A model generated the notes under the pieces. That model saw only the letters and a list, made by a program, of their open reading frames with translations. It made no database searches and was not told the origin of the DNA. From the NCBI GenBank assembly GCA_043228905.1, contig JBHGNT010000014.1, forward strand, positions 13,392,001-13,456,000: a DNA stretch of 64,000 nt, written 5' to 3'. Positions 11,092-62,821 of the stretch are shown piece by piece. The DNA is from Azolla caroliniana. Lineage: Eukaryota > Plantae > Polypodiophyta. Numbering within the stretch: position 1 is the stretch's first letter; each line of letters starts with the position of its first letter. Position numbers and translations under genes: made by a program.

Positions 11092-11145
<54 letters not shown>

Positions 11146-12391: not shown

Positions 12392-12447
<56 letters not shown>

Positions 12448-22956: not shown

Positions 22957-25196
22957 CGGTACTTCTCTTCCCATCCGGAGGGACATGTTTCCCAATAGTT
23001 TATTAGAGATAAAGCGGTTGCATATAGGAACCTTTTTGGCATGCCTTGGTAATCTTTAACCATAGAGGACAACCCATATGTTATAAAGAACATTCTCTAT
23101 GTACTAACATACACGCATATCAACAGTTGAAAATTAAAAATTAAAAAGTTTCAATTAAAAACATAAATAAATAATAGAAATGGGCAATGATTGTACAAGA
23201 GTGATGCAATTAGAAATGGGCAAAGCGATGTGTTCCTACATTGATAACACCCTATTATGTGATAGTATATGAATGTCGAGATGGAGCATCTATCTGTCCT
23301 TGTTGTCTTCCTTGGCAATATACAATCACAAAATTGAAATTTGTGTAAGAAATTGTTGCGAATGAGCATGTCCCTAGAGCATTTGAAAGTGCTTTTGTAT
23401 GATGTGCATGTTCACCAATTTCTACAACAATTACAAAAGTATGGTGTTTATGCATATAGGAGCATGATGTGCATGTTCGCCAAGTGTTATAACAATTACA
23501 AAAATATGGTCTCTATGCTCAATTCAAGAAGCTTTAATTGCAATGTGGTAGACTAGTAAACACCATGATCCATGCGACGTGTGTGGAGTCAAGGTGGAAG
23601 AACTGCCGAAATCTCAAACGAGCTTGGAATAACAAATCAAAAGGGTGTTAGAAACCACCGACAACAAGATGCAATGAAACTGTTTAAACTTGAGGATATC
23701 CCTCAGATAAATCTTACCAAAAATCCTACATCTTTAACTTCTTATAAATTTTATAATCTATTATGTAATGCCACTGGTTATTGAATTGGGATCATTTAAA
23801 ATGTTTTGGTTTGTGATTTTGAAATTGGCGCAAGAAGTTACATTATGTATTTTATCCAAGATTTACGAAAAGACAAGTTCTTGAATTATTGGTCTGTAAA
23901 AACCACACTATCGAAAGAAGAGTTCATCGTGAGATTCTTTTTAGATTTTTCGAAATGTGATTCTGATCATCACATGAGAAGTTGAAGCCTTCTACTCCTC
24001 CTCGAGCCTTCTCCTTCTCCAATGTTCGAAAAGGAAATAAAATAATAATATGAGTGTACAGGGCTAATGTGCCACATAGATGTAATCATGCAAAGCAAGA
24101 TTTGACCTGTGCATCTATAGAGTTAAAAGCATTGTATTTATTAATAGACAAACCCTTTGCGCACAAAATCAAATATAACAATTTGAGTCCGCAACCCATC
24201 CTCTTTGGTTAAATTCTCCGATGGTCCCACTTCAGTTTCACACACACCTATGTAACTTTGTAACAACACTTCCACTTAAGTGGGCCATTAAGTGCGTTTT
24301 TTCAGAGGTCAAAGTCGAGATAAAAAGAAAGATACTACCTCATGACAATTACATCAAATCAAATTGAGATCATGTTCTAAACATTTAAAAACAACAATAT
24401 CTATCAACAAAAATCATATTTCTAAGTCTTTCTCATTTCATACCAAAATCATGTAAGGTCATTTGCCTACTTTTAGCTACATGCTTAGAAAAATAACAGT
24501 AAAATTTGACTCTTGAATGATTCTATTAGCACTTGATAAATTTGATTTTACTTGCTTTGTGTTTTCTGAACTCAAATATGTTGTTGCCATGATCAAATTG
24601 AGCATGCGTTCACTATCAACAATATGTTGCAATGGTTCGAGAATAATTGTTGAGAATCAAGCTCAACTTGGTCTAGTGTGTGAACTCACCTTGAGAGTGA
24701 ATAGACATTCCAACGGTTAAGAGTCACCATTATGTCACCACTTTGTATTCTAGCATTTAGTATGAGTCATAGAATCATATTCTATGACACATAACTTATG
24801 AGCTTTCACATTCCCCATGCTCCATGAGTCTTGTAGTTAATGAAGAGAGAGGGTGACTATATAAAGCACCCTCCTCCCACCTTGTATAATGTTGAGTCTT
24901 TCTCCTTTATTAATACACTTTACCTTACGTATTCTTTGTGTCTTCTCCTTGTCTCTCTCACTCACACACACTCTCTCTCTCATACACACACAGTTCATAT
25001 CTATTCTGCTGCACAGAATCCATCTCTTGATTCTTTACATGGTATCAGAGCAATTTGGTAGGTCGATCTAGCCCATTCGCCTCATTGTGATCGTGTGTTG
25101 TGCTCCACGCTGACGACCAAGAACCGGCTCATCGCTATCATGGCTTAGCTACATAGCTCGCATTCAAAGAGAGAAAAAGAAGAAGGAGAATCAACA

Positions 25197-28049
25197 TAGC
25201 TCGCGCTCTCCCTACCGAGAAGTTGGATCGAAACAACTTCGCATCTTGGGAGTACAAGATGCACCAATACCTTGTCGGACAAGGCTATTGGAGCTACATC
25301 AAAGGAGAGCACGAAGACCGACTTGCCGAAGCGGCTCCCGGATACGCGACATGGGAGCAGGCCGCAAGCCATGTGATGTATTGCTTGGCAACATGTGTTC
25401 ACGATCACATGCTTGGCTACATTCGCGAAGCCAAGACGCCGAAGGAGGCATGAGAAAATTTACGAAAGATTTTCGCGCCGAACACAACCGCAAGAAGGCT
25501 TCAACTCCGCCAAGAGTTGAACAACATTTAACAAAGGGACATGTCCATCACGACATACACCTCAAAGATCAAGGAGCTTTGCGATTCGCTCGGCTCAATA
25601 AGCGTAAATATCGACGATGATGAGATGGTGCAAATATGCCTCGGTGGCCTCGCACCACGGTTCGGCGTGATACGAACCGCCATTCTAGCACGGGAAAAAT
25701 CTCCCTCCTTCTTCGAGCTCCAATCAATGCTATTGGTCGAAGAAAACTACGTGCGTACAAGGAGCAATGAGTCGGAAGGCCACATGCTCTACACGCACTC
25801 GAACGGAGGAAGAGGACGCAGACGAGCAAGAGGCCGATTCGGCCAAGGACAAGGTGGACGAGGTCCGACCTACGATAACAACTCCCAATTTCGGCCGCAA
25901 AACGGAAGCTAACGAGGAACTTTCGCAAGAAGGGGAAGCTTCCACTCCGGCCCGAGCCGTCAAAACGCAACTGAATGCGGATATTGCGGAAAGCTCGGCC
26001 ACCACGAAGAAGAGTGCCCAAAGAAGATGCGTGAATCGGCTTCCACAAGCCGACAACTCACGAATTACGGGCACAATTCCGACTACAAAGAGTATAGTGG
26101 AATGTACGGGCACAACTCCGACTACGAAGATCGTGGCGGAATGTATGCACGCAACTCCGACCGTGGCGGAATGTTCATGATGAAACATAGAGCAAACTCT
26201 ATGTCGGCCTCTACCTCAACTAGTGCCCTCAATTCGGAGGACGTATGGTTTGTTGACTCCGGAGCCTCAAACCATATGACATCTCATAAAGAATGGTTTC
26301 TTGAACTTTGAGAGCTGGAGCGACCTGGTTATGTCGAAACCGGAGATGACACTATGCACCCGATTCGGCACATCGGCAATGTTCCGTTCAACGAAAGAGG
26401 TAAGCAAACATACATTAAAAATTTCTTGCATGTTCCCACCATCATGTAGAATTTGGTATCGGTTGGCCAAATGATTGAGCAAAGGATCCAAGTACAATTC
26501 GACCAAGAAGGGTGCTTCATCGAAAAAGAGCGCCGAATCATCGCGCACGGAAGAAGAGAGGGCCGGATATTCATTCTCGATTCACACGAGATGAAATCCG
26601 CCATGTTCGCAAAAAGCACGAAAGCCGACTCCGACATAGAGCTATGGCACAAGCAAATCGGCCACATCAATCTCAACAAATTCAAAGCAATGAAATCGAA
26701 AGGAGTCTTCATCGGACTCCCGACATTCAAAGAGAAGGAGATTGAAGGTGTATGTGAAGCGTGCCAATTCGGCAAGCAACACCGACACCCATTCCCGAAA
26801 GAGCAGAACGTGAGTAAAGGCCTACTCGACGTAGTCCATTCCGACGTATGGGGACCGGCGTAGACGGTTACATTCGTTGGATGCCGATATTACGTGCTCT
26901 TCATCGACGACTTCTCTAGGCACACTTGGATCTACCCGATGCGGCAAAAGAGCGAAGAGTTCGGACACTTCCAAAAATTCAAGAATGAAGTTGAGAAAGC
27001 CACGGGCCGTCATGTACGATGCCTTCGATTGAATGGCGGCAAGGAGTACTTCTTGGATGATTTCACGACGTATCTCCAAAAGGAAGGAATTCAGCGAGAA
27101 TTCACTTGCCGACACACTCCGCAACAAAACGGAGTAGCCGAATGCAAAAATCGGCACATTCTTGAAGTAGCGCGGGCCATGATGAACGAGAAGCACATGC
27201 CCAAGTCATATTGGGCCGAAGCTGCAAATACTGTCGTCTACCTAATGAACCGGTGCACAACATCGGGTGTGCACGAACTTACTCCGCACGAGAAGTTCTT
27301 CGGAATGAAACTGGACCTATCGCATGTTCGGATATTCGGCTCCATTGCGTACGTGCACATCCCCGACGAGAAGCGTCAAAAGCTCGACCCGAAGTTGAAG
27401 AAATGTATCCTCGTAGGATACTCACTGGAGCAAAAGGGGTACAAGTGCTACAACCCCTCAACTCGAAAATCTCGCGTAAGTCGAGACGTCATTTTCGACG
27501 AGTCCGCATCCTGGTACGCACTAGAGACAACTTCGACTTCGATTCTGCTCGACCCGGATTCCGCCGAAATAGAGATAGAAGCCGAAGATCGACTAATGCG
27601 CATGTTTGAAGAAAGCCCAATTACGACAAGGCTTAGTGGGCCACAAGATCCCTCGAGCGATCAAAGCATATCTCGGCCGAGTCCGAAGATGGACAAAGGC
27701 AAGGCGAAAATGACGGAATATGAAGACGATCGCTTCGACGACAATGAGTCGACTCACTCACTCAACAGTGAGTTCGGCGGCTTCGATGTACCAATCGGAG
27801 CTAAGAAAGCCCTCATCTCTGCAAATGAAAAGCTCCGTTGCTCCACCCGTGAAAAGAATCTGGTCAGCCGATTCGGCTACAATGACTACATGGCATATCA
27901 CTATGCCTTTATGATGAAGGTGGAGGCAGTACGCGAACCAGAAACATTTTCCGAAGCAGTCAAGGATCCACGATGGATAAAAGCCATGAACGAGGAGATG
28001 CAATCACTACGCAAGAACGAGACGTGGGATGTCGTTCCCACCTCACCAC
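25197..28049 (+). pseudogene. Copia-3 gag-PR-INT (5' part of the polyprotein)
   Basis: DRNNFASWEYKMHQYL, CGYCGKLGHHEEEC knuckle, WFVDSGASNHM protease, FIDDFSRH..TPQQNGVAE integrase. Confidence 0.93.
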
Positions 28050-28627
28050 TGTTAAGGATCTATGTATCGATGGAGTAAGCTCCTCGATATCGTGGCGGGG
28101 TTCGGACTGGCGTATACCCTCTTGATGGCGAATCGAGCGGAGATGGTTGTCAAATACCTCCGAGCCTCACACTCACTCAATGATTAGTAAATGATTAAGC
28201 ACGATATCTCTCTCACTCTCTCAAGCTCTCTCTCATAGACAATAGATTAATAGATATAGACAATAAGAAGCAAGAGTATGTCTATTATTAACCCTCTTTG
28301 CTAAGAGGTCTAGCACCAACAAGGAGAGAGATTAGTGTTCTCTAACTCAACACTTCACTAATCTCTCTTAAGCTCAAAGGTTACAAGAAGGAGGAAAGGA
28401 AGTTCTAGCTCTAATCAATAGGAGATCTTTACAAATGGGAGAACCCCCACAAAGCCACTACTATGTGGTTTATATAGTTTCACGTTTAGGGTATGGGCCT
28501 TTCACATTTGATCGTCTCTTTGCTTTCCTTTCCTCTTGTTGTTTCCTCTTCGTACTACGTCCTTGTTGATGCGTTCTTATTCGTGACTGGTTGTGTTGTT
28601 ATCCCAACGCTTAACATCCCCCCCAAC

Positions 28628-31600
28628 CTAATGAGTGCACACTTCCGGGTGCACTGTGGGAGGGGAGCTTCGGGCGTCGGGGGTGAGTAGAATTGAGTAG
28701 GGGGGTTCGTCGGGGGGCGGGTGGCCGCGGAGATGATGGCGAACACGACGGATGTTCAATGGTGGTGGCCGGATTTCCTGCAGTTGGTCGGTTGTTGTGA
28801 AGAAATCTTTCTTGGGGTTGGTGAGCCAGATGTAGGTGTTGTGGCCGGTGAAGGGAGAAGGGGGGTTTCGACTAAAGCTTATGTAAGCGGGGAAAAAATG
28901 TGTGTCGATCATGGTTTCAAAATCCCGTTTGTAGGTTGCGGGTGGAGTATGTTGACGCGGGTCCAAAGGCCGACTAGTTGGCGACGAGTTGGACCTTTGT
29001 TCAAATCGAAGGCGAGGCCCCACGCTGGGTGGTTGTGCCGTTGGAAGGGGGGGGCTTCGTATGGGCCAGAGTCAAGGAGAATGAGTAGAAGTTGTAGAAA
29101 ACGAAGGCTGGCTTGAATGTTAGGGTTCGGGACGTCGAGGTATGTACGTAGGAATCGTCGCATGACCGGGATCATGTTGGGTTCGGTGGGGGATGTGTGC
29201 GGGGGTCGAGGGAACAACGTCCAGTTGAATTGAAGAGTGGGTAGGCGTGCCTTGGCGGCGCGAAAATTGGGCCATGGCCAATGACGAGGAAGGGGAAAAA
29301 AGGTGGGGCTGGTGCGCAGCTCGGGGGGGTGGAGGGCGAGCCATTCGCGGAAGGATGTGTGTGCGAACCAAGGGAGACGCCATGGGGGTTGGGTGCCGGG
29401 AGGTTCGAGGAGGGGGTCGACGATGGGGTGGTGCCACCCTCGAGTGGGGATGGGGTTTGCGGTTGCCCAAGTAGACATCTTATCGCGGTAAACATGGGGG
29501 TAAAGGAAGATGTCGACTTGGGGTTTGGAGGCGACTTCGGGGTAATAGTTGTAGAGGCGGGTGAGGATTAGGAGGGTCTCACAGAAGTTGAACTCCTAGG
29601 GAATGGGGGCTGCAGACTGATTGTCAAGACGAGTGTCCCAACTGGTACCACTTTCGATGCAATCAAGGGTGGTTTAGAGGTTGTGGGTGAGTTGGTAGCG
29701 GTCGACCAAATCAGCGTAGAAGGCCGCAACGTTGAAGCGGGCGCTCGAGGTGTGGAGTAAGGGAGGTGTAGTGAAGATGGGGAGGGGTAGTTGTTGGTGG
29801 AGCATGAGGTGGGCGAGGGGATGGTTGAAGGGGAGAGCTTTGCGGAGGATGGCCTCCGTGAATGTCCGACCGGGGTGGGTGACGACCCGTGTGTGGAGGG
29901 GGAAAGGGTCGGGTGGTGGGGGGGGAAGGGGGTGAGCCTAGGGGGGTGTGCGAAAGGGGTTGTCACCGAACATGGGATGTGTGTGGTCGGGGACATGGTG
30001 TTCACTGAGGTGAGGGTGTGGGGGCGAGTGGTGAGGGGGGAAGGGAAGTGGGCTAGTAGGTGGTGGGGGTGCGGGGGGGGGGCTTGGAGGCGGGGAGGAG
30101 GGAGGGTGAGGGCTAGGAGGTGGTTGGGTGTCGGGTTCATCAGGTGAGTCATGGTCCCACTCTAGGTCGATCTCTGGGGGGGGGGGAGCACGAGCACGAG
30201 CCTCATCGAACATCCTGAGTTGATACTCGCGGGAAACATCGAGGTATAGGGCTAATTCCGGTATGTCATCAGCCTCGAGGTCGGTGGGCCAGTTGAATGT
30301 GGCATATTCGATGCTGAATATGTGAGTACGAACCCCGACGTCCCAGGCGGTTTGCCAAGCGCGTATTAGCCAGAGGAAACTGAAAGGGGGTACGGAGGTC
30401 GTTGTGTTTTCCAATAGGGTGCGGGTGCGGGTGTCGGCGATGTGGTGTAAGCGCACCAGTGTTGGGAAGAGGTGGGCCAGCTGGTCTTCGGTGACTTGCA
30501 TCGTGACATCATAAGGGTAGGTGAAATAGATCAGGTTGGAGATATCTAAGTCGGGGGTGAGGGCGGTGTGAAGGTAGGCCATACCTTTGAGGAACAAAAT
30601 GGGGAGGTTTTGGGGGAAGAGGTCGCCGGTTGGGGGAGCAGGTTCTTCGGTGGCTTCCTAGTACAACATGAAGAGGGCAAGGGCGTGGTTGTCTTCGGGG
30701 AGTACTCGGATGAAGGTCTACCGGTCTGGGGGTGTGGTGTCGTCAAAGAATACGCGATGCGTGGCGGCTAACGACCGAAGGACGCACGTTGCTTGGATGA
30801 GGAGGGTGCGTGGTGTGCGTGGTGCAGTGAAAAGTTCGAAGAGCAGGGAGGTCGAGGTCACGTACACCGAGAGTGCCTGGATCATATTCAGAGAGCCAGT
30901 TGGGGGAAGGAGAGGGGTCTGAACGGTGGAGGGGTCCGTCATGCCGGGGTTGAGGGCGTGTTCAAGGGCGGCTTTGGACGTGCGGAGTTGAAGGATGTCC
31001 TTTTCGAGGTTGGCGCATTGGCGGCGGTGTTTGATGAGGAGACATCGGTTGCGTTCATTGGCGACTTCGACTTGGTGGACCATGGCGTCTCGTTTAGCCT
31101 TGAGGGTGCTGATCTCGCTCGTGAGTTGGTGAGTGGTGGCCATGGCGGCGGCCAGGGCCTCGAATCGTTCGGAGAGATCAGCCGTCACGGCTGCGAGTCG
31201 GGCCTCGGTCAGTTGGTGTTGGGTGGTGAGGCGGACGTACTCGGCCGAAAGTTCGGCATGTGTTTACGCTGCGCGTTCCGGGTCGTGGTGCCAGGTTGTT
31301 CGAGCTTGTTGGAATTCGTTAGCGAGTTGTTGGTGTCGGGTTTGTGTTGTCAGGAGTTCTTGCTTGACGAGGTCGTGGGCGGCCGCTCCGTACCTCGGCG
31401 GCCAAGATCTCGTTCCGTGTAGAGGTCTCGTGTTGGTCGGTGGCGGTCTGTTGAGCCTGTGCCTGAACTTGAAGTAGGCGACGGTTCACGACAACAGTCA
31501 TCTTGAGGAGGTCGGCCACCATGTCGGTTAAGGGTTTGGGGGGGACGGCGAGGGAGGGGGTAGGGTGAGTAGTAACTGCAGTGAGGGAGGTTGAGTAAGG

Positions 31601-32909
31601 CACGAAGGTCGGGAGTGGGGGTGGGGGTGGCAGTGGCGGGGTTGCCATCTGGGCCGGGCCGATGGTGGGTTGGAGGGGAACTGCCGGGGTTGCGGTCGAG
31701 GGCCAGTCGGGGGTTTCGGTGTCGGGAGCGGCGTGGTGGGTGAGTTTAAGGGGTCAGGGTTCGGGTTGTCATCGGTGGTGGTGGACGGGAAAGGTGGGGT
31801 AGTTGTGGCTGGGGCGGGGGAGAGGATTCGTGGGGTAGAGGGGTTGGCGAGGTGGGGGGAGGCGGGGCTGGCGGGTTCCGTTGGGTGCGCAAGATTGACT
31901 CAGTGGTGCAGTTGCGGGAACGCAGAGTCGTGGTTGTGTTCTGATGTGACACATAGTGGAAAGTAGTGGACAAGGCTTGGATTTCGGTGGGGGTGAACTC
32001 GTGTGTCTAGAATTCCTTGACACGATTCGTGATATCCTCAGGGGTGTCGAGGTTAGCTTTGGCTGACACGTGAGTGATCGGGGGTTGTTTGTGCGCCGGT
32101 GGCCGTGCCTGTTCACCTTGGTGTACCTGTTGTAAAAAGTCGCGTTCGAGTTGGCTTGGGACAGTGATCTTGCGGAAGCATTCTTGTCAGCATACGAAGG
32201 GAGGGGCGGGGGGTCCGATGCTGAACTTTCCGCACAAGTAGCGGGTGAGGAACCACGCGAAATTGACAGTCGATTTGGGCCGTGTGTGCCATTCTCGGAC
32301 CCAGCGGACAAGCTCGTGAGCCCATTGGACCGGTTGCGGATCATGTGCCCACTTGAGGTACTCACCGGTGATACGAGCGGTGGCATCGGTAGATGCGGTG
32401 TCGCCGATTTGGGCAATTGCGCTACAACGGTCGTGCAGATGGAGAGGGATTTCGGTGTAACGCCAACCTTCGCGTCCAGAATATTCGGCGTAGGCGACAT
32501 GAATGATGCCAGGGACAACCCCAGGGGTCCTCATGGTGCGGAAGGGGGCGCCCTCGAGGGGTAAATGCAGCGTAGCACAAACGTCGGCCGCGGTGAACTG
32601 GAATTTGATGGGGGGGGAGTCTGTGAAAGGCTGCATATCGACGTGGCCCGTATTGGGGTTGTACCCCATGAGGAAACGGTTGACCAGTTCGGGTAGGACG
32701 CCCCACAGCCCGATCCCAAGGAAGAACTTGAGGCCAAGTCGTGAGAGAGTGGTGAACACGTCGGGTTCAAGGTACTTGAGCTGTGTGGCGGCCGTGGGAA
32801 CCCGGTAAGTACATCGGGTATTGTTGAACACCACTAGAATGACTAAGGAACCGCACCCTACGTCGGGGTAGTATGCGTGGAGGAGTTTGATGAATTGGGG
32901 AGACGTCAT
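28628..32909 (-). pseudogene. Disrupted ~1,400-codon accessory ORF of unknown function (N-terminal plant-mobile/ATHILA-ORF-like domain, Pro-rich linkers, coiled coil)
   Basis: Consecutive minus-strand ORF pieces join through single stops (32187, 32007, 31264, 30718, 30658, 29938, 29674, 29596) and a few frameshifts; final stop is 11 nt from the LTR. Confidence 0.75.
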
Positions 32910-33071
32910 CGTTTGCAACCTGCGAGGAAAAATATTAGTATAGTTAAATGTGGTGACGAATCAGCTACGTCGGGGTAGTATGCGTGGAGGAGTTTGATGA
33001 ATTGGGGAGACGTCATCGTTTGCAACCTGCGAGGAAAAATATTAGTATAGTTAAATGTGGTGACGAATCAG
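32858..33071. repeat. Perfect 107-bp tandem duplication covering the splice acceptor and start of the accessory ORF
   Basis: ctacgtcggggtagtatgcg...gtgacgaatcag at 32858 and 32965. Confidence 0.9.
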
Positions 33072-33289
33072 CAAGTATGGGTAGTTTCAATAGATTCCCT
33101 GTTTTTTTTTTTTTGAGAGCAGGACGTGGAGTCCTAACTACAGAGTAACTCAGTTAAATGTGGTGACGAATCAATAAGTTCAGGTAGTTTCAATAGATTC
33201 CCTTTTTTTTATATTTTTTATTTATAGAGAGCGGGCCGTGGGGTTCTAACTACGTAGTAACGTAACAACTAAGAGTTACGTGGTCTAGG

Positions 33290-33515
33290 AGTTGGGCTCC
33301 TCGAACAACGCGTGGTTCAAGGAGTTGGGTTGGGTGTGGTTCGAGGGGTTCGACTCCTCGAACAACGGGCAGCTCGAGGGGTTGGGCTCCTCGAACACTA
33401 TGTAGTTTGAGGGGTTGGGCCCCTCGAACATTGTGTGATTCGAGGGGTTGGACCCCTCGAACAACGGGTAGTTTGAGGGGTTGGCACAGTGTTCGAGGGG
33501 TTGGGTCCCTCGAAC
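33290..33515. repeat. 33-bp minisatellite (EGPNPSNxxLF repeats) at the point where pol breaks off
   Basis: tcgaggggttgggctcctcgaacaac-type units, about 6-7 copies. Confidence 0.8.
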
Positions 33516-33559
33516 CACGAGGCGGAGTGGTCTGTAAACGGCCAACGACGTGGGGAGGG

Positions 33560-36500
33560 TGATCAAGGACGCCTCCTCGTCGGGCTGGAAATCTACGACT
33601 ATGAACACCGGTTTGGAGTCTGTCCCTTTCCCGAGGTTGATTTCTTTCACCCTTGCTAGTCCATCATAGACTTCTCCTAGGCCTTGGGGGTTGTGTTGCG
33701 GTCTCTTACAAGCCACTGCCCTACTCCCTTGTTAATAGAGTTTGAAATGCTCTGGGAAGTCCGCTTCCGTCACAGCCTCCTGAGTGGTTGTGACGTCACC
33801 CGGATGTGTGACTCGTTGTACCAGTTCTTCGTCCTTTACGTCTAGTTCTTTTCACCGGGGTCCCAAGGTGGTGACGTTGAAGCATGAGATTGTTTCTCCT
33901 TCCTCGTCACAACACTTTGTACCTATAGGGTACATTGCGTCGGTTGTGGCAAGAGCGTGCACGCAATTCCTCTCTGACGTCTCGGAAGTGACAGATTGGT
34001 CGTCTCTCTCACGTGCGTTCTCCTCTTTGGAAGTGGTGAGGCTTTGAGGAAAGTGTTGGCCTCTGGTCAAGAGTTGAACTGTCTTTGTGGGGTTGCATGC
34101 TAGGAGGTTGGTCTCGAACTCAATGGTTTCTGACCAATCATCTACGAGAGGGCTGCCTTCTTGTTCATGCACTTTTTGTGTGTATGCTTTGATGCGGAAG
34201 GTTTTGTTGTCCTTTCGCATATAGATTATATTGTTCCCAAAATCTATTACTAGGCGGCTTATACGTAGGAATGGTCTTCCTAATAAGCACTCGTAGGCTA
34301 CATGGTTGGACAATCTTGTGACAACGAAGGTGAGATTGAACTCCACTCCGTGGATAGTGAAGTGATGCGCATGAATCATGCCTTCCGGTCTTTGGATGGA
34401 CCCATCTGCCATTCGTAGTTTGACATCGGAAGGCAGCATTCTTGGGCTCCCCCACTTACACGAACATTCGTAATTGACGATACTTACCCCTGCTCCGGTG
34501 AAAGTGATGGTGTCACACACCTTACCATTGACACAGATTGGTACAGTGAAACTAGTGTCATCGCTCTCGAAGTGAGATTCGTGGACGTCGACTGGCGGTC
34601 CTTTGGGTTGTTTGAGGACTGTGGACGTGTGAGGAGTGTGGGTGTGTATCCCTTCACCATATCTCGCCGATAGGCCACCATTGAGGCGTGAGAGGACGTC
34701 GTGCCACGGTTGAATGTCGAGTTTTAGTTCTTCGAGGGTGAACTCTATTTCCTTGGCGAGTAGAGGTCGTAGCAGGGGGTTGTCGGTGGTGAAGGTGCCA
34801 ATGTAGCTCTGCACTTCGCGTAATGTGAGTCGCAATCTTAAATTTAAGATTTGTTGGAGTAGGGCTGTGTTGACCTCTTTGATCAGGGTAGGATGGCAAG
34901 TGCGGGTGTCGGTTGGTGTGACAACGAGGGGAGGTGAGGGGTTATTCTTCTAGTTGGTCGAAGTTTAAGCTGGGGAGGCTAAGTGATTTTTCAAACTGTT
35001 CGTGGTGTATGAGTTTGATGTATTCTTCTACTTTTTGTTTCTCAGCTACTGGGTTTGGGTATGCCGCTAGGTGCGCCGGCAGTTCTTGATTCGGATTGAC
35101 AGGTAATGTTTCTGTGTCTCCCTCCAGTTCTTGATCTTGTTTTGAGGTCTGCGTGGAATTATTCTTTCTAGATTTGCGTCTCTTACGTGCGGTCATGGGG
35201 AGACCTTGATCTTGGTATTTTAAATTGTGCGCTACTCGTTGGGCTCGTGTGATGACATTGGACGCTCGTGGATGGTACAATGGACAACAGATTTGTGCCG
35301 ACCCTTTTCTTCTTTTCCGGGCAATCAGGTACTAGGTGTTCTTTACCACACCCTGGGCATGATGCATCTCTTTGGAACCATTCGATGAGGTCTTGCGACT
35401 GTTGGGTGGGCCCTTGCGCAAGTGGTTGCGGGGGCGTGTCGAGTGAGAGGTGTCGTGGTCGTTGGGCCATCCGGTTGTAGTACTCATGTTTGGTTGGGCA
35501 CTTGCTAACCATATGTGGGCCTTGGCAGTTGAAGCATTTCAATTCTGACCTCCTTAGACCATTGTTGTTGCGGTATCCCATAGGGGTTCCACGTTGTTCC
35601 CCTCTCAGGACGTACACTGGTATTTGGTCGCCTTCAAAATCCACGAAATGGGACAACACCTCTTCTTAAATGCCATACTCCTGGTACGAGTCTTCATATT
35701 CGGGGGTGCTCGCTCTGACCTGGGTTTGGTTATCTGTGGTATACTCCAGTTCAGCGAGGCGGGCGCCGATGCGCGGTAGTGGGGGTTGTTGAGGGAGTAT
35801 CGCTGGTAGTGGTGGGCGACTAAGTGGTGGGGGAGAGCGTGGGTGTTCCACCATTGGCGTTTGGTCGTACCATCCAGTGGGGGCTTGCCAGCAGTTCTCT
35901 TGCGTATGCATCACGAAAGCTTTGCACCACTTATAGAATTGAGGCCGTCGTTGATGAAGGAGGGGACACTCATGTCCCGTGTGGTGTCCGTGACATACCG
36001 TGCACCTTACATTTTCTCGTTGGGCATATGCTTGGGGTCTTTCTATACGGGGTATTCGCGGTGGTGTGGGTAGAGTAGGGGTGGAGTCGGAGGATTTCTC
36101 GCGGTTGTTCGTGGGTGCGTGAGTGGGTATTTGTAATCCACTCATCAAATCTTCAAAGGTCATCACTACTGTGTAGGCTTCAGCAAACGATCGACACATC
36201 TTGGCAATCAGGAAATTTTGGAGTGTCGGATCGAACAACCCATTAATGAAACGGCTCATCAACTTGTCATCTGACATCTTGTCGTTCGGACTACAATGAT
36301 GATGCAGGATTTTCGTGTGATGTATGTAGTCCCTAACGATTTCGTTCGCTTCTTGCTTGAGGGCGAAAAGTTGATCAATCGGGTTCTATTTATTCCCTCT
36401 GCAAGCGAATTTTATCAAGAAATCATCGATGACATACTCGAAATCGGCGGCGATGTCTTCATTCAAGGTTCGAAACCAGATTCCGGCTTGGTCATCAAGT

Positions 36501-37165
36501 GTAAGTCCAAACGTGGCTACCTTAGTGATCTCTGTGAGGGGTTCATAAGTGCGACAAATCTGTTTGAACCTCTCGACATGGTCATAGGAATCGCCGAAAC
36601 CGAGGAAACAAGGTACTAGTTTAGAAATGGAAGCACTCTTCCCACTGTCATTTGTGAGGTTTCTCGGATGGTCTGTGGGTGCTCACTCTTTTTCCATCAA
36701 TGCTACGAGAGTTTGGATGGATTGTAGCGCTAGTGCGAGTTCGGCGTTTGGAGGTGTAGGGGTAGCTTGGTTAGGTGTAGGGATTGTGCCCATGTGTGGT
36801 AGTGTCGGGTGTCGTTGTGTGCGGGTTTCGTTCGGGCTATCGCCCGTTGTGCTCGAACGCGATACGGGGTTGTGCTTCTGACTTCCGCGATGCATGTGCG
36901 ACGATGTTCCTAGGAGGTGAAGTTTTTGTTGCACTCGTGCGAATCTATCCTTCCTTTCTGCCAAAGCGGCTTCGATATCTCGAGTGGTGCTTTCCGGTTG
37001 TCCTCCTTTTGCAAGTTGTACCGTCCATAGATTGATTTCATGTTCTATCACCTGTAACTCTTGCGCTGCGTCTCGTATATGTCGTTCTACACTGAGTGGG
37101 TCTACCATTGGGCTCTCATGTAGTGGGATAAGTGCTTTAGTTCCTGGGCTCGATGGGAGGTTCAT
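33560..37165 (-). pseudogene. Gag (Retrotrans_gag + four CCHC-type knuckles), aspartic-protease-like region and pre-RT linker of the nested element
   Basis: DQAGIWFRTL..KLMSRFINGL; CTVCHGHHTGHEC, (Y)KWCKAFVMHTQENC, CFNCQGPHMVSKC, CPGCGKEHLVPDC; DTITFTGAGVSIV..LRMADGS..YECLLGRPFL; KEINLGKGTDSKPVFI. Confidence 0.85.
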
Positions 37166-37334
37166 GTTTGGTAGTATCCCCAGAGTTAGCCACCCTCGTG
37201 GTACTGAGTCAGGTTAGGTGGGACAGCATCGTGGGTTTGGTTGGTTTGCGTGGACTCCTTCGGGCATGTGGGTAGGGTTTTGAACATCTCTGTCCATGAG
37301 GATCCGGCCATGTTTTCCGGTCAAGCTTTTATAG

Positions 37335-37850
37335 GTTCGTCGAAGGATGAATATTAGTCGAAGGCTGAATCTTCGTTGAAGGTTGAATCTTCGTCGAAGG
37401 CTGAATCATCGTCGAAGGATGAATATTAGTCCAAGGATGAATCTTCATCGAAGGCTGAATCTTCGTCGAAGGTTGTTCTTTCGACGAGCTTTGCGTGGGA
37501 AATTCAAACTTTTTGGCGCCAACGGTCGTTTCGTGACCCGTGGAGTGACCGTAAGCTGCAAGACTCGCGGTGATTATGCTTGCCCCGTAACAACCTAATC
37601 TCCACAATGTTTAATGTTAACTGAGCGAATGAACGAAAAATCGACTTAATTAACCTATGGAATAATCAGAAAAAACGGAAAATGGAACTTAATTAAACTA
37701 TGAAATGATAGAAAAAAACAGAAAATGGAACTTAATTAAACTATGAAATGATAAAAAAACAGAAAATGAAACTTAATTAAACTATGAAATGATGAAAAAA
37801 AAGAAAATGGAACTTAATTAAACTATGAAATGATGAAAAAACAGAAAATG
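37335..37850. repeat. Two tandem arrays in the 5' UTR of the nested element (18-bp and ~43-bp units)
   Basis: cgtcgaagg(a/c)tgaat(ctt/attag) x~7 at 37338-37470; aaaatggaacttaattaaactatgaaatgat..aaaacag x4 at 37680-37850. Confidence 0.8.
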
Positions 37851-37937
37851 GTGGTTCTCTTGTGATTTCTTCCTTCGTTGAGTGGTTTGCCTCCAAGTTT
37901 TTGACTACTCAAAAATAGGCTTCAAGCATCGATCGTA

Positions 37938-37955
37938 TCCCCGGTAGCGGCGCCA
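37938..37955 (-). promoter_or_regulatory. Primer-binding site, tRNA-Asp type (Athila-like)
   Basis: TGGCGCCGCTACCGGGGA 6 nt downstream of the 5' LTR; Athila consensus is TGGCGCCGTTGCCGGGGA. Confidence 0.8.
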
Positions 37956-38529
37956 AATAGATGTTCAGGATCTATGTATCGATTGAGTAAGCTCCTCGAT
38001 ATCGTGGCGGGGTTTGGACTGGCGTATACCCTCTTGATGGCGAATCGGGCGGAGATGGTTGTTGGATACCTCCGAGCCTCACACTCACTCAACGATTAGT
38101 AAATGATTAAGCACGATATCTCTCTCACTCTCTCAAGCTCTCTCTCATAGACAATAGATTAATAGATATAGACAATAAGAAGCAAGAGTATGTCTATTAT
38201 TAACCCTCTTTGCTAAGAGGTCTAGCACCAACAAGGAGAGAGATTAGTGTTCTCTAACTCAACACTTCACTAATCTCTCTGAAGCTCAAAGGTTACAAGA
38301 AGGAGGAAAGGAAGTTCTAGCTCTAATCAATAGGAGATCTTTACAAATGGGAGAACCCCCACAAAGCCACTACTATGTGGTTTATATAGCTTTCACGTTT
38401 AGGGTATGGGCCTTTCACATTTGACCGTCTCTTTGCTTTCCTTTCCTCTTGCCATTTCCTCTTCGTACTACGTCCTTGTTGATGCGTTCTTATTTGTGAC
38501 TGGTTGTGTTGTTATCCCAACGCTTAACA

Positions 38530-39987
38530 ACCACACAAAAAGGCGATCGGATGCAGATGCATTTACAAAGTGAAGTACAATGCCGACGGTTCCGTCAACC
38601 GCTATAAAGCGCGACTCATAGCGAAAGGCTACGCCCAAACGCACGGAGTTGACTACAAGGAGACCTTTGCCCCATTAGCAAAGATGACAACGGTACGGAA
38701 TGTAATTGCACTTGCCGCGGCAAAAGGGTGGCACCTCCATCAAATGGACGTCAAGAACGCCTTTCTACAAGGCGAATTAGAAGAGGTGTACATGATACAA
38801 CCACCCGGCTTCAACTCAAGCACCCATCCGAAAGTTGTATGCCGATTCAAGAAGCCACTCTACGGCCTCAGGCAAGCATCGCGTGCTTGGCATTCGAAGA
38901 GAACGCAATATCTTCATCAAATCGGCTTCCGTATGTCAAAATCGGACAACTCCCTCTACATACGAAGTGATTCTGCAAGTCCGATCGTCATCATCTTATA
39001 TGTGGATGGCCTAGTCATTGGAGGTGAGCATCTCGTCGAAATCAATAAAGTCAAATCCCTCCTTTCCGAAAAGTTCGAGATGACGAACATGAAGGAGCTC
39101 CACTACTTCCTCGGCATCAAGGTAATTCAGACTCAAGCCGGAATCATGATCTCTCAACGGCACTACATCCTCAACTTGTTATACAAGTTTGGGATGGCTG
39201 AGTGCAAATCCGCGGCAACCCCGCTCAATCGCAATCTCAAACTAGATGTGAACTCCGGCACCAAAGCGTGTGAACCGACTCAATATCGGCAACTCATCGG
39301 GAGTCTCATCTACCTCACGATCACTCGACCCGATCTCAGTTATTCAGTCAGTCTCCTTAGCCAATTCGTGCAAACACCGCGTGATACTCACTTGGATTGC
39401 GCTAAGCGAGTTGTACGATACGTGAGCGGCACAATGGATTGCGGCATCCTCTACAAGACCGCGATGCCAATACGACTCGAGGGGTACACATACGCCGATT
39501 GGGCCGGCTACAAAGCTGATAGAAGATCAACCTCCGGATTTGTTTTTTCCCTCGGCAGCGGAGCAATATCCTGGAGCAGCAAAAAGCAACCAACCGTCGC
39601 TCTTTCGAGCACAGAGGCGGAATACAAGGGCACGACAGTGGCCGCATGTGAAGCCATATATGGCTCAAAAGGATACTCAAGGATCTGGGCGTACCCATCA
39701 AGGATCCGACTTCCCTTTACTGTGACAACATGAGTAGTATCTATCTGGCTCGGAACCCGGTGTTCCACGCGCGGACAAAGCACATCGAAGTGCACTATCA
39801 CTTCATCCGAGAGCGCGTTCTAGCTGGTGATGATGACCTACAACACTTCAGCACCAATCTTCAAACAGTCGACATCTTCACTAAAGCCTTAGGAACTGAC
39901 AAGCTATGGCAATTCATGACTGATCTCAGATTGACGATCCCTGACCTGCCAAGCTTGAGGGGGAGTACTGAAGACGCTACGCAATAA
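38530..39987 (+). pseudogene. Copia-3 RT-RNaseH (3' part of the polyprotein)
   Basis: RYKARLIAKGY, HQMDVKNAFLQG, LYVDG (for YVDD), YADWAG..RRSTSG, HARTKHIEVHYHF. Confidence 0.95.
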
Positions 39988-40843
39988 CGCGTGGATTCCG
40001 CAAACCGCACACACTACGCAATAACGTGTGTTTTCTGCAACCGCGCAACGAAGCCGCGAAGAGCCAACCTACCGTGCAAAGCCGCGAAGAAAGACGCAAG
40101 CCGAAGCACAGACTTCGCAACTACGCGCAACGAAAGCCAAAGCACGGATTCCGCAACTCCGCATAAAGCGAGTCAACGGGGACTCCGGAACGCGAGTCGA
40201 AGCGGATTTCGGATACCATCTGAAACCGACCCGACTTGAGCTTGAGGGAGCGTGTTCAGAATCAAGCTCAACTTGGTCTAGTGTGTGAACACAACTTGAG
40301 AGTGAATAGACATTCCAATGGTCAAGAGTCACCATTATGTCACCACTTTGTATTCTAGCATTTAGTATGAATCATAGAATCATATTCTATGACACATAAC
40401 TTATGAGCTTTCACATTCCCCATGCTCCATGAGTCTTGTAGTTAATGAAGAGAGAGGGTGACTATATAAAGCACCCTCCTCCCACCTTGGATAATGTTGA
40501 GTCTTTCTCCTTTGTTAATACACTTTACCTTGCGTATTCTTTGTGTCTTCTCCTTGTCTCTCTCTCTCTCATACACACACAGTTCATATCTATTCCGCTG
40601 CACAGAATCCATCTCTTGATTCTTTACAATAATCATATCTTCTTCTCTTACGCGTCCATGCAGATCTGGTATGTCAACTAGCTTAGAATTTGAGTTTATA
40701 TTTTCATAATATGTGAGTGGTTCATTTGTGTTGGAAGCTTGTGTGGAAGTGTCTACTATAACTTCACCAATCCTTTAAGTAGATTTTACTTAGGTTTTTT
40801 TTATTCCTTTTCATATGCATTGACACATTCCATGATTTTATCT

Positions 40844-43800
40844 TGTTGAGCGGCAAGCTCAACTGGAGCCGGTTCGGCTGAAAAGCCTGAGCCGGTAAGT
40901 GAGACAGATCGGTATGCCGGTGAGCAACCAAGCCGGCAAGCTACAGAGTCGGTGAGCAGAGAGCCGGTTAGCCGGATCCAGAAGTAACCGGAAGCCTAGT
41001 AATAAGTTAGATTACTAGGTAGTTATAGTCTCAGAGTTAGTGTCAGATGCTCGTGTGACCATTGAAGTACACAGTACTTCTGTCAGTCCGCGTAGGACTT
41101 GTATAAATAGTGTTACTGAGCACATAGTATGTAAAGAGTGTTTACTATTATTTTGAATATAACTTTTACATTCTGCTCTCTCTGTCTCTCCCACGTACTC
41201 TCTGCATATTTTCTGTTTTCTCTGCTTCTCTAACGCTTCCGCAAGCAATCGTTCACATGATATCAGAGCACGAGGGTTGAGAACCTCTATTGCAGACATT
41301 CGCCTTGAGAAGCAAAACCCAACAGGTCGCAAGAATAGACACTGAAGCGGTTATGCACAGAGGTATGGCAAGTTCACTTCCCACAGAGAAACTCGACCGG
41401 AGCAACTATGTGTCTTGGTCGTACAAAATGCATCAGTACCTATTGGGGCATGTGTATTGGAGTTTCGTGGAACGAACGAACGAAACAACACCTAATACGA
41501 CACACGAGGACTTCCCAACGTGGGAACAATCGGCAAGCAGAGTGATGTACTGCTTTGTGTCCAGTGTCGGGGATCAGCTTCTGAGCCAAATTCGAGACGC
41601 CAAGACGCCGAAGGAGGCTTTGGGGAAACCTGAAGAAGGTTTTCACCACAAGCACTACAGCCCGAAAGCTGCAACTCCGACAAGAGTTGAGCAATGTCCG
41701 ATAGAGGGACTTGTCGATGGCTGATTATACGTCCCGGATCAAAGAGATCTATGACTCGCTTGCCTCTATTAACGTCACCGTAGAGGAAGACGAGATGGTA
41801 CATGTCTGTCTTAGGGGCTTGGCGTCTAAGTACAAAGCCTTTCAGACGGCGGTTTGTACAAGGGAGAATACGCCGTCATTTTTTGACTTATAGTCGATGC
41901 TCCTTGTAGAGGAGAACCACGCCGGTGTGTCAACTAGCGCACCCACTGACAGCTGGATGTTGTACACAGAGGCGGATCGGTCCCGTGGGCGTGGTGGACG
42001 AGGCAGGTCGGCACGCAATGGAGGTGGCCGGCACAGAGATCGTGCTGACAACAATTCCGGACCCTCTGGGAGCAGGGGGAGTCAATGCGGTACTGGAGGC
42101 CGGCAAAACAAATCCGCAACGGAATGTTGGTACTATGGCAAGAAGGGCCACAAAGAAAGCGAGTGCTAGAGAAAGCGCACCGATTCGGACAAATCTGGAT
42201 CCGGCAAGGCTGGCAAGGATGGCCGGCAAAGCTTGCACTACGCAAACGAATCGGGAGGATCCAAGAACGGTAAGGGGCCAGCCTTGGTGATGAAGCACAA
42301 GGTGAACTCAATGAAGAAGACCACTTCCAAATCGAAGGAAGTGTGGTAACGTTCATTCCGGCGCGTCAAACCACATGACGAGCCACAAGGAGTGGTTCTC
42401 TTTGTTGGAGAAACTGGATCAACCAGGAGTAGTCAAAACCGGAGACGACACTCCTCACCCAATCGTGCATGTCGGAGAAATCCCTTTGAGCCACGTCGGA
42501 CAGAAGGGGAAGCTGATGAACGTGTTACACGTTCCAACAATCATGAAGAACCCGGTGTCGGTCGGACAGATCGTTGACCAGGGGATGCAAGTGCGGTTTA
42601 CGCACCTTGGGTGCTTCATTGAGGATGAGGGTGAAGTTATTGCGCAAGGGCGCAAAGACAAGAGGATGTTTATCCTTGACACCAATGACATCGGCACCGC
42701 TCTATTCGCAAAAGGACAGAAGGTCGAGTCAGACATCGACCTATGGCACAAGCGGATAGGCCACGTCAATTACGGGAGGCTTCAAGACCTGCGAACGAAA
42801 CAAGTTGTTTTCGGTTTGCCAAAGTTTAGCAGCCGGAGAGCCCAAGTATGTGAAGCTTGCCAACTCGGGAAACAACACCGGCTTCCATTCCCCACTAAAC
42901 GAAACCGGAGCCGTAACAAGCTCGACCTTATCCATTCGGATGTGTGGGGACCGGCACAGAATGTTAGTCTTGGCGGGAGTCGATATTTCGTCTCCTTCAT
43001 CTACGACTATACACGGCACACATGGATCTACCTCATTGAGCGGAAGAGTGAAGTCTTCGAATGTTTCCGGAGCCTCCAGAAGATGGTGGAACGGGAATCA
43101 GAGAGGAAGATCAAATGCCTGTGGTCGGATGGCGGAAAAGAATATTTTTCCGGCCAATTCAACAGCTATCTGCAGCAAAAAGGAATTCGGCACGAGTACA
43201 GCTACAGATACACACCGCAACAGAACGGTGTCGCCGAAAGGAAGAACCGGTCGCTTGTTGATGCGGCAAGGGCAATGCTGGAGGAGAAGAGCATGCCCAA
43301 ATTCTACTAGGCGGAGGAGGTCCGGACAGCCGTCTACATCCAGAACCGGATTGGTGACAAGGTGTCAGCTCACGAGCTGTATTTCATCTGTGCATGTGCC
43401 GGATGAGAAGCGGAGGAAGCTGGATGCAAAATGCATCCTCGTCGGCTATGCTCAAGAGCAAAAGGGTTATAAGTGTTATAACCCTCGGACAAAGCAGGTC
43501 CAAGTTAGCCGAGATATCGAGTTCGATGAATCGGCATCATGGTATTCCTTACCGACTCCAACTTCCGATCCCGTGCCGATGCCGGAGGATGAGGCTAGTG
43601 AGCCACAACCGGCCCAGGTAGAGGATGATGAAGCGTGGACTCAAGATGAGAGTCTGGAATTGTTTCGGTTGAGCGGACCGAACGAGAGACTGAGTCAATC
43701 TGACTAGTCCGATGAGGAACCGGTGAGTAGTGGAGACTTTGTCGTGCTCTCCCCGCGCAAGGAACCGAGGAGACGGTTCACACGCAAAGAGAAAGGGAAA

Positions 43801-46800
43801 AAGAAGATGTCGGAATTCGAAATCGGCAACGATGAGTCGGATCGGTGTGCATCCGACTTTGGCAAGGAGAAAGGCAAATCTTCGGCAACGAAATCCGGAC
43901 CGGCCAAGAAAGGCCTCAATACAGGCAACGGTGAATTACGCCAGTCCACCCACCAGAAGGATCCCGTCAAGCGGTACGGGTACAATGAGTACATGGCGCA
44001 TCACTATGCGTACATGACTAAGGTGGTGGAAGTGCGTGAGCCGGAGAGCTACACATAAGCGGCAAAGGACGCAAATTGGCGTGCCGCTATGGAGGAAGAA
44101 ATGCAGGCACTGGATGCCAGCGAGACATGGGACCTGGTTGACCCTCCCCGTCACTGCAAACCGATTGGATGCAAGTGGGTGTCCAAGGTAAAGTACAACA
44201 CTGACGGTTCAGTTAACCGATACAAGGCCCGGTTAGTGGCGGAGGGGTACGCGCAGACCCACGGAATTGATTACGACGAGACCTTCGCTCCTATCGCGAA
44301 GATGACGACGGTTCGTGTGGTGCTGGCGGTTGCTGCGGCAAGGGGGTGGCATCTTCACCAGATGGATGTGAAGAATGCCTTCCTTCAAGGAGATCTTGAA
44401 GAACGGTTCTATATGATCCAACCCCCTGGTTTCCAATCAGAGATGAACAAGTCGGCGGTATGTCGACTGAAGAAGTCACTTTACGGCTTGAAGCAAGCCC
44501 CCCGAGCTTGGAATGCGAAAATCACACACCGGTTGTGTAAGATGGGATTCGCGGCCTCCAAGTCAGACTCTTCATTGTTCATCCGGAAAGGCTCAGACGG
44601 TCCGGTATGTATACTGTTGTATGTTGATGATTTAGTCATCACCGGACCGGGCCTTTCTGAAATCAACCGGGTCAAGTCCCAGTTGTCGGACGCATTTGAG
44701 ATGAAGGAACTGGGGAACCTTCATTACTTCCTCGGGATTGAGGTGATCCACACCCCAGATGGCATATTGCTCTCACAACGGCATTACGCGTTTAATATGT
44801 TGTACAAGTTCAGCATGACAGAATGCCGACCTGTCTCCACACCCTTGGACCAGAACCAGAAGCTCTGTCCCAACTCCGGACCAGCCTGCAATGAGAAACG
44901 GTTCCGACAAATCGTTGGAAGCCTTATATATTTGACCATCACCCGACCCGACATCAGCTATCCGGTCGGAGTGATAAGCCAATTCATGCAGAAGCCGACT
45001 GTGGAGCACCTTTAGTGCGTGCAACGAATATTGCGATATGTAAGCGGCACGAAGGACCGGGGACTGTTATACCGGCGAAGTATAACTTTAGAGCTGGTCG
45101 GCTACACGGATGCCAACTGGGTCGGTGATACGTCAGATCGCCGATCGACTTCCGGATTTATGTTTTCTCTTGGGAGTGCAGCTATTGCGTGGAGCAGAAA
45201 AAAGCAACCAACAGTGGCTCTGTCTAGCACTGAGGCTAAGTACCGGGGCGCGACCATGGCTACCTACGAAGCCATTTGGCTTCGGCGACTGCTGCGAGAC
45301 TTGCAGATCAAGGTACCAACCCCGATCCCGATTTATTGTGATAACATTAGCAGCATGCAGCTCGCCAAGAACCCTGTGTTCCATGCTCGCACGAAGCACA
45401 TAGAAGTGCATTATCATTTTGTGCGTGAGCGGGTCCTGAGCGGTGAAGTTGAACTTCGGTATGTTCACACGGATTGGCAAGTTGCCGACATCTTCACCAA
45501 GCCGCTCGGATCTGACAAGTTGCAACACTTTACCGACATGCTTGGTGTTTAGCATCTCGACGTGCCGCAATTGAGGGGGAGAAGCAAGGGCAAAGACACT
45601 ACCGAAACGGGCAAAGGCAAAGAAACTGTTGAACCCATCGGTAAGAGAAGAACCGGAAGAAGGGGAGACAAGAAGAAGAAAGAAGTTGAGCTGACGAAGG
45701 AAATCGACACATCCGAACAAGTCGGAGCAAGCAGCTGTGGTGGCAGATTCAAGAAGGACAGAGCCAACCGGAAGGAAGAAGAAGGGTGCACTCAGGAAGA
45801 GAAGTGCATGTTGTGCGGAGGTCATCACGGCAGTAATGACCATGATGCGGAGTCGAATGAAGAATTCGATTTCGGTGAACCGGTTGAAGAAGCCGAGGGA
45901 AGCACGGAGAAGGCCAAGACCCAGACGTGGTCTGATGTGGTGAAAGGCCTGATGTCGGAAGTCGAATCGGAGGATATCACGGTGGTAATGACCATGATGC
46001 GGAGTTGAATGAAGAATTCGATTTCAATGAACCGGCTGAAGAAGCCGAGGGAAGCACGGAGAAGGCCAAGACCCGGACGTGGTCTGATGTGGTGAAAGGC
46101 CTGATGTCAGAAGTCGAATCGGAGGATACTGATTCAGACAAGAGCTGGAATGAGTCGGAGACAGCCGATTTGCATCAAGAGTTGGATCCGGATGAGTCGG
46201 ATCAACCAAAGGCCAAGGAAACACGGACGTAGCGGAAGTCAATGCCATCGCGGAGGAACCGACGGATCGGCAAGCGCCGGAGTCATAGCAGCGAAGGAGC
46301 TGAGATGGGCCTGATGAGCAAACATGCCGACCGAGAAGGTCGAGGCGCGCAGAACCAGAGCGGTTGCGGCAAATAGGACCGGGCCGGACGAGGAGCGCGA
46401 GCAAGGCGGAGCGACGCCAGGAGAAGTCGGTTGAAAGAACCGGCCACCACAGAGAATGACACTACAACCCGACCTCGAGTTGAGCTTGAGGGGGAGTGTT
46501 GAGCGGCAAGCTCAACTAGAGCTAGATCGGCTGAAAAGCCTGAGCCGGTAAGTGAGACAGATCGGTATGCCGGTGAGCAACCAAGCCGGCAAGCTACAGA
46601 GTCGGTGAGCAGAGAGCCAGTTAGCCAGATCCAACAGTAACCGGAAGCCTAGTAATAAGTTAGATTACTAGGTAGTTATAGTCTCAGAGTTAGTGTCAGA
46701 TGCTCGTGTGACCATTGAAGTACACAGTACTTCTGTCAATCCGCGTAGGACTTGTATAAATAGTGCTACTGAGCACAGAGTATGTACAGAGTGTTTACTA

Positions 46801-46910: not shown

Positions 46911-46989
46911 TATCTCGAATTTCTTCTACATTGTATGCATTTCAAGCAATTTGCCATTACATAACAAAGCAATAAGATCAACAATGCAT

Positions 46990-62787: not shown

Positions 62788-62821
<34 letters not shown>

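Follow-up and report, generated by a model that had tools for sequence, protein, structure and literature searches.

A large accessory gene under purifying selection in a Ty3/gypsy retrotransposon family of Azolla caroliniana, and a candidate palindromic target for its protein

Between the protease region and the 3′ long terminal repeat (LTR) of a Ty3/gypsy retrotransposon of Azolla caroliniana lies a stretch of several kilobases in which only fragments of open reading frame (ORF) are apparent, and the question it raises is whether these are the remains of a real gene and, if so, how that gene is expressed and what its protein does. The element, which is 10.5 kb long, lies on the minus strand and carries gag, protease and the extra gene, is part of 64,000 nucleotides of DNA that we analysed as a whole (assembly GCA_043228905.1, contig JBHGNT010000014.1, positions 13,392,001 to 13,456,000; hereafter the window, with coordinates counted from its first letter). 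An earlier note, made from the letters of the window, had proposed a hidden accessory ORF whose fragments join into one frame, and this proves to be real, since sister copies encode a collinear protein in a single frame. We conclude that this is almost certainly a real, selected accessory gene.

In the window copy the extra gene runs on the minus strand from 32909 to 28628 and contains eight in-frame stops and four frameshifts. The stops lie in the frames that the earlier note had given, at codons starting at 32189, 32009, 31266, 30720, 30660, 29940, 29676 and 29598. Between 31749 and 32909 the coding frame has two stops, compared to seven and eight in the other minus-strand frames, and between 28912 and 31386 it has six, compared to 18 and 24. 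The last piece does end 11 nt from the LTR, as had been said: the final TAG (28630-28628) is followed by an 11-nt polypurine tract and then by the LTR at 28616. Comparison with the sisters places the frameshifts at ~31820, between 31780 and 31730, at ~31390 and at ~28945, and this alters one detail of the earlier description, in which 32909-31746 was a single frame; the stops within that piece are as described, but the coding frame leaves it at ~31820, and the stop at 31746 is therefore out of frame, while a stop at 31756 may be a ninth in the coding frame. Each stop had also been attributed to one C>T change. Judged against the sisters, four of the eight are compatible with C>T, one is compatible with G>A and three with neither, and the attribution is uninformative in any event since a single C>T change in CAA, CAG or CGA yields each of the stop codons. 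Among the sister codons aligned opposite the eight stops, 2/58 are also stops. We note that an exact 107-bp tandem duplication, missed previously, doubles the acceptor and the start codon, so that a dead-end frame of 36 codons, opened by the upstream duplicate, comes before the gene.

A search with the first 240 residues returned four longer proteins at 76-93% identity, and the clusters of those proteins include P0038 (1,429 aa) and P0019 (1,332 aa), which are collinear with the whole window gene. A scan of metagenome contigs identified 13 loci of the extra gene (L001-L013), four of which span the whole gene and share the stop, polypurine tract and LTR at its end. Specifically, L001 is open over 1,429 codons (172-4458), and the other three gene-spanning loci break after 1,006, 474 and 986. 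As the element is multicopy and the loci are contigs built from short reads, a contig may be an average over several copies, and "open" is a safer statement about the family than about a single insertion. The ratio of nonsynonymous to synonymous substitution rates (dN/dS, pairwise Nei-Gojobori) for the window copy and L001 is 0.16 (0.14-0.19), with 241 differences at first, 207 at second and 656 at third codon positions, and for six other loci compared to L001 it is 0.19-0.29; these ratios are uncorrected for transition bias, and some dS values are near saturation, the subfamilies being separated by dS of up to ~1. The earlier note had proposed a dN/dS below 1 as a check on the gene, and values of 0.16-0.29 across pairs bear it out. 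By domain, dN/dS is 0.07-0.15 for the N-terminal domain (7/7 pairs), 0.17-0.24 for the coiled coil, 0.18-0.32 for the helical domain, 0.13-0.17 for the C-terminal domain and 0.11-0.20 for the tail; values for the Pro-rich linkers were discarded because the pairing of codons there relied on best local identity, irrespective of frame. These ratios indicate purifying selection on every globular part of the protein. One sister form (P0019, P0011 and L008) lacks the second Pro-rich linker together with the first ~80 residues of the C-terminal domain, as a natural deletion or an assembly artefact, and in P0019 remains in frame at 1,332 aa.

Could the frame instead be of no use to the element, either as a gene captured from the host or as one that is open by chance in C-rich DNA? 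With 59% G+C and a strong C-skew the region is expected to hold fewer stops, and three of the four full-length sister loci are broken. We nevertheless hold this explanation to be highly improbable, and chance alone to be largely refuted, given a dN/dS far below 1 even across the most diverged subfamilies, a shared start, a shared stop at the polypurine tract and a conserved acceptor (see below), and given that no named cellular homolog was identified among 45 HMMER matches (10 of them looked up) or 22 word-search matches. The HMMER matches were obtained with residues 1-986 of a sister against 1.84 billion representatives; they extend down to ~30% identity, are mostly fragments, and include no informative name among the 10. 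The 22 word-search matches were obtained with the C-terminal profile and are database proteins, all from ENA and all unnamed. Neither gag nor the extra protein had a relative among viral contigs.

The window copy of the element is dead, as it has stops and frameshifts and is without a region for reverse transcriptase (RT), RNase H and integrase. It is nested in a Ty1/copia element (24648-40628), between integrase and RT, and the stop density of the extra gene, 8 in ~1,425 codons, is indeed similar to that of the host copia gag-pol, with 6 premature stops in ~1,365 codons and no frameshifts seen; the element's own gag has 3 in 676. The LTRs of the gypsy element differ at 14 of 567 sites (Kimura two-parameter distance 0.025, or 2.5%), and those of the host copia (24648-25039 and 40253-40628) are 2.7% apart. 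Decay of the extra gene after insertion is plausible because the copia element, at similar LTR divergence, has a similar stop density, and some damage may also be earlier, as the eight stops exceed the 1.7-3.6 expected from an LTR divergence of 2.5% (P 0.0004-0.03). At the last frameshift (28942-28945) the sister contigs split between the window form and another in all three DNA runs; a version ending ~105 residues early may be common to many copies, or the split may reflect alignment noise at contig ends.

How might a gene at this position be expressed? An acceptor AG (32921-32920) lies 10 exon nucleotides ahead of the ATG at 32909, and the pattern of branch point, acceptor and ATG has just two occurrences in the 64 kb, both strands counted, and these lie at the duplicated spot. 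The acceptor site was seen in 11 of the 13 loci (L012 does not reach there, and L013 lacks the AG stretch). The motifs CTAAT and CAGG are invariant and identically spaced in 5/5 distinct upstream types. Farther out, at 35-140 nt upstream, the DNA of four of these types was compared, and in 5/6 pairs its similarity does not exceed that of shuffled sequence. The splice acceptor that the earlier note had placed just before the ATG is thus present and kept across all five upstream types, and splicing is likely because the acceptor is invariant while the intron DNA is mostly unrelated. A candidate donor hexamer, ~300 nt past the TATA box and before the primer site, occupies one and the same place in each LTR compared, namely both window LTRs and 3/3 sister LTRs checked. 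On these grounds the extra gene is probably expressed from a spliced RNA, as has been described for 3′ sense ORFs expressed from spliced subgenomic RNA in ATHILA (PMC7197481) and BAGY-2 (PMC7264820).

The predicted protein has the layout that had been drawn for it, namely an N-terminal domain, a linker, a coiled coil, a helical domain, a second linker and a Trp/Pro-rich C-terminal domain (Table 1), and in Pfam the coiled-coil region has weak coiled-coil matches only. The earlier statements that it has no clear transmembrane helix and is not a classic env also stand, the maximum 19-residue Kyte-Doolittle means being 1.28 and 1.35 in two natural sisters. These values bear on the possibility that it is an env-like or movement protein that moves particles between cells, as proposed for the 3′ sense ORFs of Athila and BAGY-2. 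Position, orientation and splice-acceptor layout match Athila ORF2 and BAGY-2 (PMC7197481, PMC7264820), but with no transmembrane segment, no obvious hydrophobic leader and only four N-glycosylation sequons in 1,429 aa we think such a role very improbable.

For residues 1-330, ESM Atlas returned three unnamed clusters at 0.86-0.87, two of them recorded as plant, and the only named families among the matches listed were DUF1985 (0.85) and PMD (0.83). The resemblance of the N-terminus to ATHILA-ORF, Transposase_32 and PMD-like domains that had been suggested thus survives as a sub-threshold lead to DUF1985 and PMD, and fails as a Pfam match. The core sequence pattern LV..FL.GY...F...DV...L.LP..G (helix-strands-helix) resembles the PMD/DUF1985/Transposase_32/ATHILA clan. 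In our judgement, the case for a remotely PMD/DUF1985-like N-terminal domain is evenly balanced. The anti-silencing protein VANC contains a DUF1985 domain (PMC5735166), and DUF1985 is reported to be structurally similar to PMD (bioRxiv 10.1101/2024.09.27.615353; PMC13547354). Oligomerisation through coiled coils is predicted both for VANC and for the Athila domain (PMC13547354), and a long coiled coil is predicted in the extra protein too. The extra protein had no match in a PDB sequence search, the C-terminal domain had no usable match in ESM Atlas, and no PMD-type ORF was found among 20 further window ORFs scanned. A profile match between the N-half and C-half alignments was rejected as an artefact of one protein that overlaps both.

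A candidate target for the protein lies upstream of the gene, in the form of a tandem array of a palindromic repeat (Table 1). The full palindrome has three exact matches in the array and none in 100 shuffles, and exact half-sites number eight in the 290 bp concerned compared to one in the 53 kb outside the element. In L004, L005 and L007, which belong to another subfamily, identical arms recur in arrays whose spacers are unrelated and mostly 11 nt long; single half-sites occur there in addition, and the surrounding DNA is otherwise unrelated. In L004-L008 the palindrome array and the acceptor are separated by ~1.2 kb of DNA that is AT-rich and has no relation to that of the window, and L006 starts with a degraded gag-like piece. 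Like the motifs of VANC systems, the palindrome is amplified in the non-coding DNA of its own element, which makes the array a candidate target, and its conservation is an indirect argument for anti-silencing.

Read as RNA, the same array forms stable hairpins (-107 kcal/mol, z -10.5) within the predicted intron, and the protein might therefore be a Rev-like RNA regulator that binds the hairpins in unspliced genomic RNA and promotes its export, stability or packaging. The array sits upstream of the acceptor and so would be present only in unspliced RNA, its variable loop length suits hairpins, and accessory-factor roles have been proposed for plant extra ORFs (PMC7264820). We consider this explanation unlikely, however, because any palindromic array folds well, so that the z-score is not independent evidence, because the stem sequence is conserved and not covarying and the sisters have unpaired extra half-sites, and because no known RNA-binding domain was found in Pfam and PDB sequence searches.

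The array could also be unrelated slippage, and the protein a nuclear or particle-associated scaffold that serves in integration targeting, chromatin tethering or as a chaperone of particle assembly. Such a role, which we regard as possible though doubtful, would suit the modular layout with its long coiled coil and Pro-rich linkers and the selection on all modules; moreover, arrays at this position are common (PMC11963269), and accessory proteins of transposable elements are predicted to have many host contacts (PMC13547354). A scaffold would nevertheless account neither for the retention of the palindrome's arms where spacers and flanks are not retained, nor for the DUF1985/PMD lead.

Our best guess for the extra protein, offered tentatively and with less than even confidence, is a VANC-like DNA-binding anti-silencing factor. 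That such a factor has this palindromic array as its target is a more doubtful proposition, and so is the complete proposal of a retrotransposon counterpart of VANDAL/VANC, in which splicing would yield a multi-domain protein of 1,430 residues that has two undescribed domains and, remotely, the PMD/DUF1985 fold, and that binds the array. According to this proposal, splicing from the 5′ LTR donor would drop the primer binding site and gag-pol from the transcript, and the ~1,430-residue product would be a soluble nuclear protein with a remote PMD/DUF1985-type fold in its N-terminal domain. The protein would oligomerise via its coiled coil and bind the element's own palindromic repeat array as DNA, its two orphan domains would recruit host factors, and it would counter host silencing as VANC does for VANDAL transposons.

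Several observations weigh against an anti-silencing factor that binds the array. The N-terminal domain is not basic (K+R 22, D+E 23), and Pfam families PF10536, PF09331, PF20167 and PF03078 gave no match at E up to 1-5 in a search of window pieces, six natural sisters and 20 alignment members, in which HMMER filters drop most weak matches. AlphaFold models of the open sister have a predicted local distance difference test score (pLDDT) of 35.2 for residues 1-330 and 34.8 for residues 655-1429, and Foldseek and VIA-align returned only noise with the former. The Atlas scores of 0.83-0.85, with 117-129 of 256 shared features, are below family-member level, and in one-third of cases shuffled proteins score as high as 0.8. 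The array is present in three of the eight sister upstream regions examined, of which the other five may not reach there, and the difference in spacer between subfamilies, 9 compared to mostly 11 nt, is awkward for a rigid dimer site. Observed/expected CpG is 0.8-1.5 in the element outside the LTR and 0.9-1.2 in the neighbouring copia elements and, being no higher in the element, leaves no footprint of protection from methylation. Finally, tandem arrays that lie in the pol-to-3′ LTR interval are common in Tat-type elements, with no known function (PMC11963269).

The element that carries the gene has the order of parts expected for Ty3/gypsy, a Retrotrans_gag-type gag followed by a retroviral-type aspartic protease, and is flanked by a 5-bp target-site duplication, GTGGT. 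RT, RNase H and integrase are absent from this copy, whose pol frame ends at ~33554, just before the RT position. Sister contigs from 3/3 DNA runs cease matching the window at 33549-33554 and continue into different sequence, and the window copy therefore probably derives by deletion from an autonomous Ty3/gypsy family. By eye, the sister sequence past that point keeps the pol frame and, judging by its motif, looks like the start of RT. The primer binding site, which we take to be tRNA-Asp-like, has a near-identical counterpart after the LTR of L008, and the pol stub motif EINLG...VFI looks Tat-like rather than Athila-like. The family probably belongs to the non-chromovirus Ogre/Tat/Athila (OTA) superclade, as suggested by a non-Met tRNA primer site, a 5-bp target duplication, an extra ORF and long non-coding regions, which are features described for this superclade (PMC6317226). 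Summed contig depth over gag-protease (33554-37900) is ~3x that over the extra gene (28628-32909), which is no copy-number measure and hints that some family members are without the gene or have more diverged forms of it. Empty-site joints, in which the copia element is without the gypsy insertion, are present in three DNA runs.

Elsewhere in the window, a second copia element (40844-46911) has LTRs that are 3.4% apart; its gag-pre-integrase, integrase and RT are fragmented, and at 45816-46119 it contains a 152-bp tandem duplication. Pieces at 6680-7040 and 12637-12730 are ~70-80% like the LTR of the gypsy family and flank a copia-like element (7044-12637), which suggests an older related LTR split by insertion. 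A 171-bp tandem array of ~8 copies that are >99.7% identical lies at 55914-57281, and a 17-bp TCGA-rich tandem repeat, in style like the element's 18-bp 5′ untranslated region (UTR) repeat, at 58199-58334. Genes or elements at 747-1178 (+), 3486-5525 (-), 52195-55350 (+) and 61981-63769 (-) include a xyloglucan endotransglycosylase exon, a long pentatricopeptide repeat gene, a lectin/PAN receptor kinase and the integrase-chromodomain end of a chromovirus; the first three mark the host as a land plant.

Table 1. Parts of the Ty3/gypsy element and of its extra gene, in window coordinates.
Feature	Position	Strand	Remarks
5′ LTR	37962..38529	-	568 bp, TGTT...AACA; TATA ~38388
Candidate splice donor GTGAGT	38088-38083	-	in 5′ LTR; putative use
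Primer binding site	37938..37955	-	non-Met tRNA type, 6 nt past 5′ LTR
5′ UTR tandem repeats	37336..37851		18-bp x7.6 and 41-43-bp x5.2
gag frame	35186..37213	-	3 internal stops/676 codons; Retrotrans_gag PF03732 E 2.3e-9; Cys/His knuckles
Aspartic protease region and pol stub	33554..34949	-	PF13975 E 9.4e-5, below curated cut-off
33-bp tandem array of inverted repeat GTTCGAGG-N9-CCTCGAAC	33284..33520		between pol stub and acceptor
107-bp exact tandem duplication	32858-32964/32965-33071		acceptor and start codon doubled
Branch point, pyrimidine tract and acceptor AG	32920..32940	-	CTAAT at 32938; CTAAT...CAG/G (slash, predicted cut)
N-terminal globular domain	32175..32909	-	~245 aa, most constrained part
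Short second module and Pro-rich linker 1	31560..32174	-	two frameshifts
Predicted coiled coil	30950..31559	-	~200 aa, heptad pattern; frameshift ~31390
Acidic helical domain	30190..30949	-	~240 aa; low-confidence helical prediction; distant relatives 33-50% identity
Pro-rich linker 2	29950..30189	-	between helical and C-terminal domains
Trp/Pro-rich C-terminal domain and tail	28628..29949	-	frameshift ~28945; stop 28630-28628
Polypurine tract	28617..28627	-	abuts stop codon; same layout in 4/4 sisters reaching there
3′ LTR	28050..28616	-	567 bp

Extra ORFs of plant retrotransposons have been catalogued in 3,372 gypsy elements, most of them without recognisable domain or function, and are common in the OTA superclade, where they form 314 unrelated groups of which about one-fifth have any known domain (PMC6317226). 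The arrangement of a spliced 3′ extra ORF is therefore already known. The extra protein itself is, as far as our searches reach, new: a keyword search of the literature (not a search by sequence) found no account of it and no demonstrated anti-silencing protein of an LTR retrotransposon. For a functional study the family offers a naturally open copy, selection on five modules, a clean conserved acceptor and, as a candidate target, the array. Should the N-terminal domain prove to be PMD/DUF1985-like and bind the array, this would be a sequence-specific anti-silencing system in an LTR retrotransposon. It would assign the PMD/VANC fold a part in the sequence-specific counter-defence of a retroelement and would be relevant to PMD ancestry (PMC5418596), including a possible gypsy origin of host PMD genes. 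Otherwise, what the gene contributes is a further large family of proteins, two of whose domains are orphans.

Four known systems invite comparison. Athila ORF2 and BAGY-2 share with the window element a sense ORF between pol and 3′ LTR behind a splice acceptor, a non-Met tRNA primer site and a 5-bp target duplication, whereas the window protein is without a transmembrane helix and without a PF03078 or PF20167 match, has two orphan domains and is ~3x longer than a sunflower Athila ORF of 487 aa (PMC11728184). The PMD-A ORFs of Ogre-type gypsy elements (PF10536), described from angiosperms (PMC5418596), PMD being present in 57% of Ogre elements (PMC6317226), are likewise gypsy-borne accessory ORFs, possibly with the same PMD-type fold; unlike these, the window protein is without a Pfam match, much larger and multi-domain. 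The TRP28 ORFs of Retand, Grande and RIRE2, for which DNA binding has been proposed (PMC11963269), have in common with it a long region from pol to 3′ LTR, an accessory ORF and family-specific tandem repeats, but they are antisense with their own promoter, while the window ORF is sense, lies behind a splice acceptor and has no Transposase_28 match. VANC of the VANDAL DNA transposons resembles it in being an element-encoded accessory protein with a coiled coil (predicted here), in the amplification of a short motif as tandem repeats in the element's non-coding DNA, and in that DUF1985 is the top named Atlas neighbour of the window N-terminal domain among the matches listed. The window case differs from VANC in that it concerns a retrotransposon, a palindromic motif and a sub-threshold homology lead.

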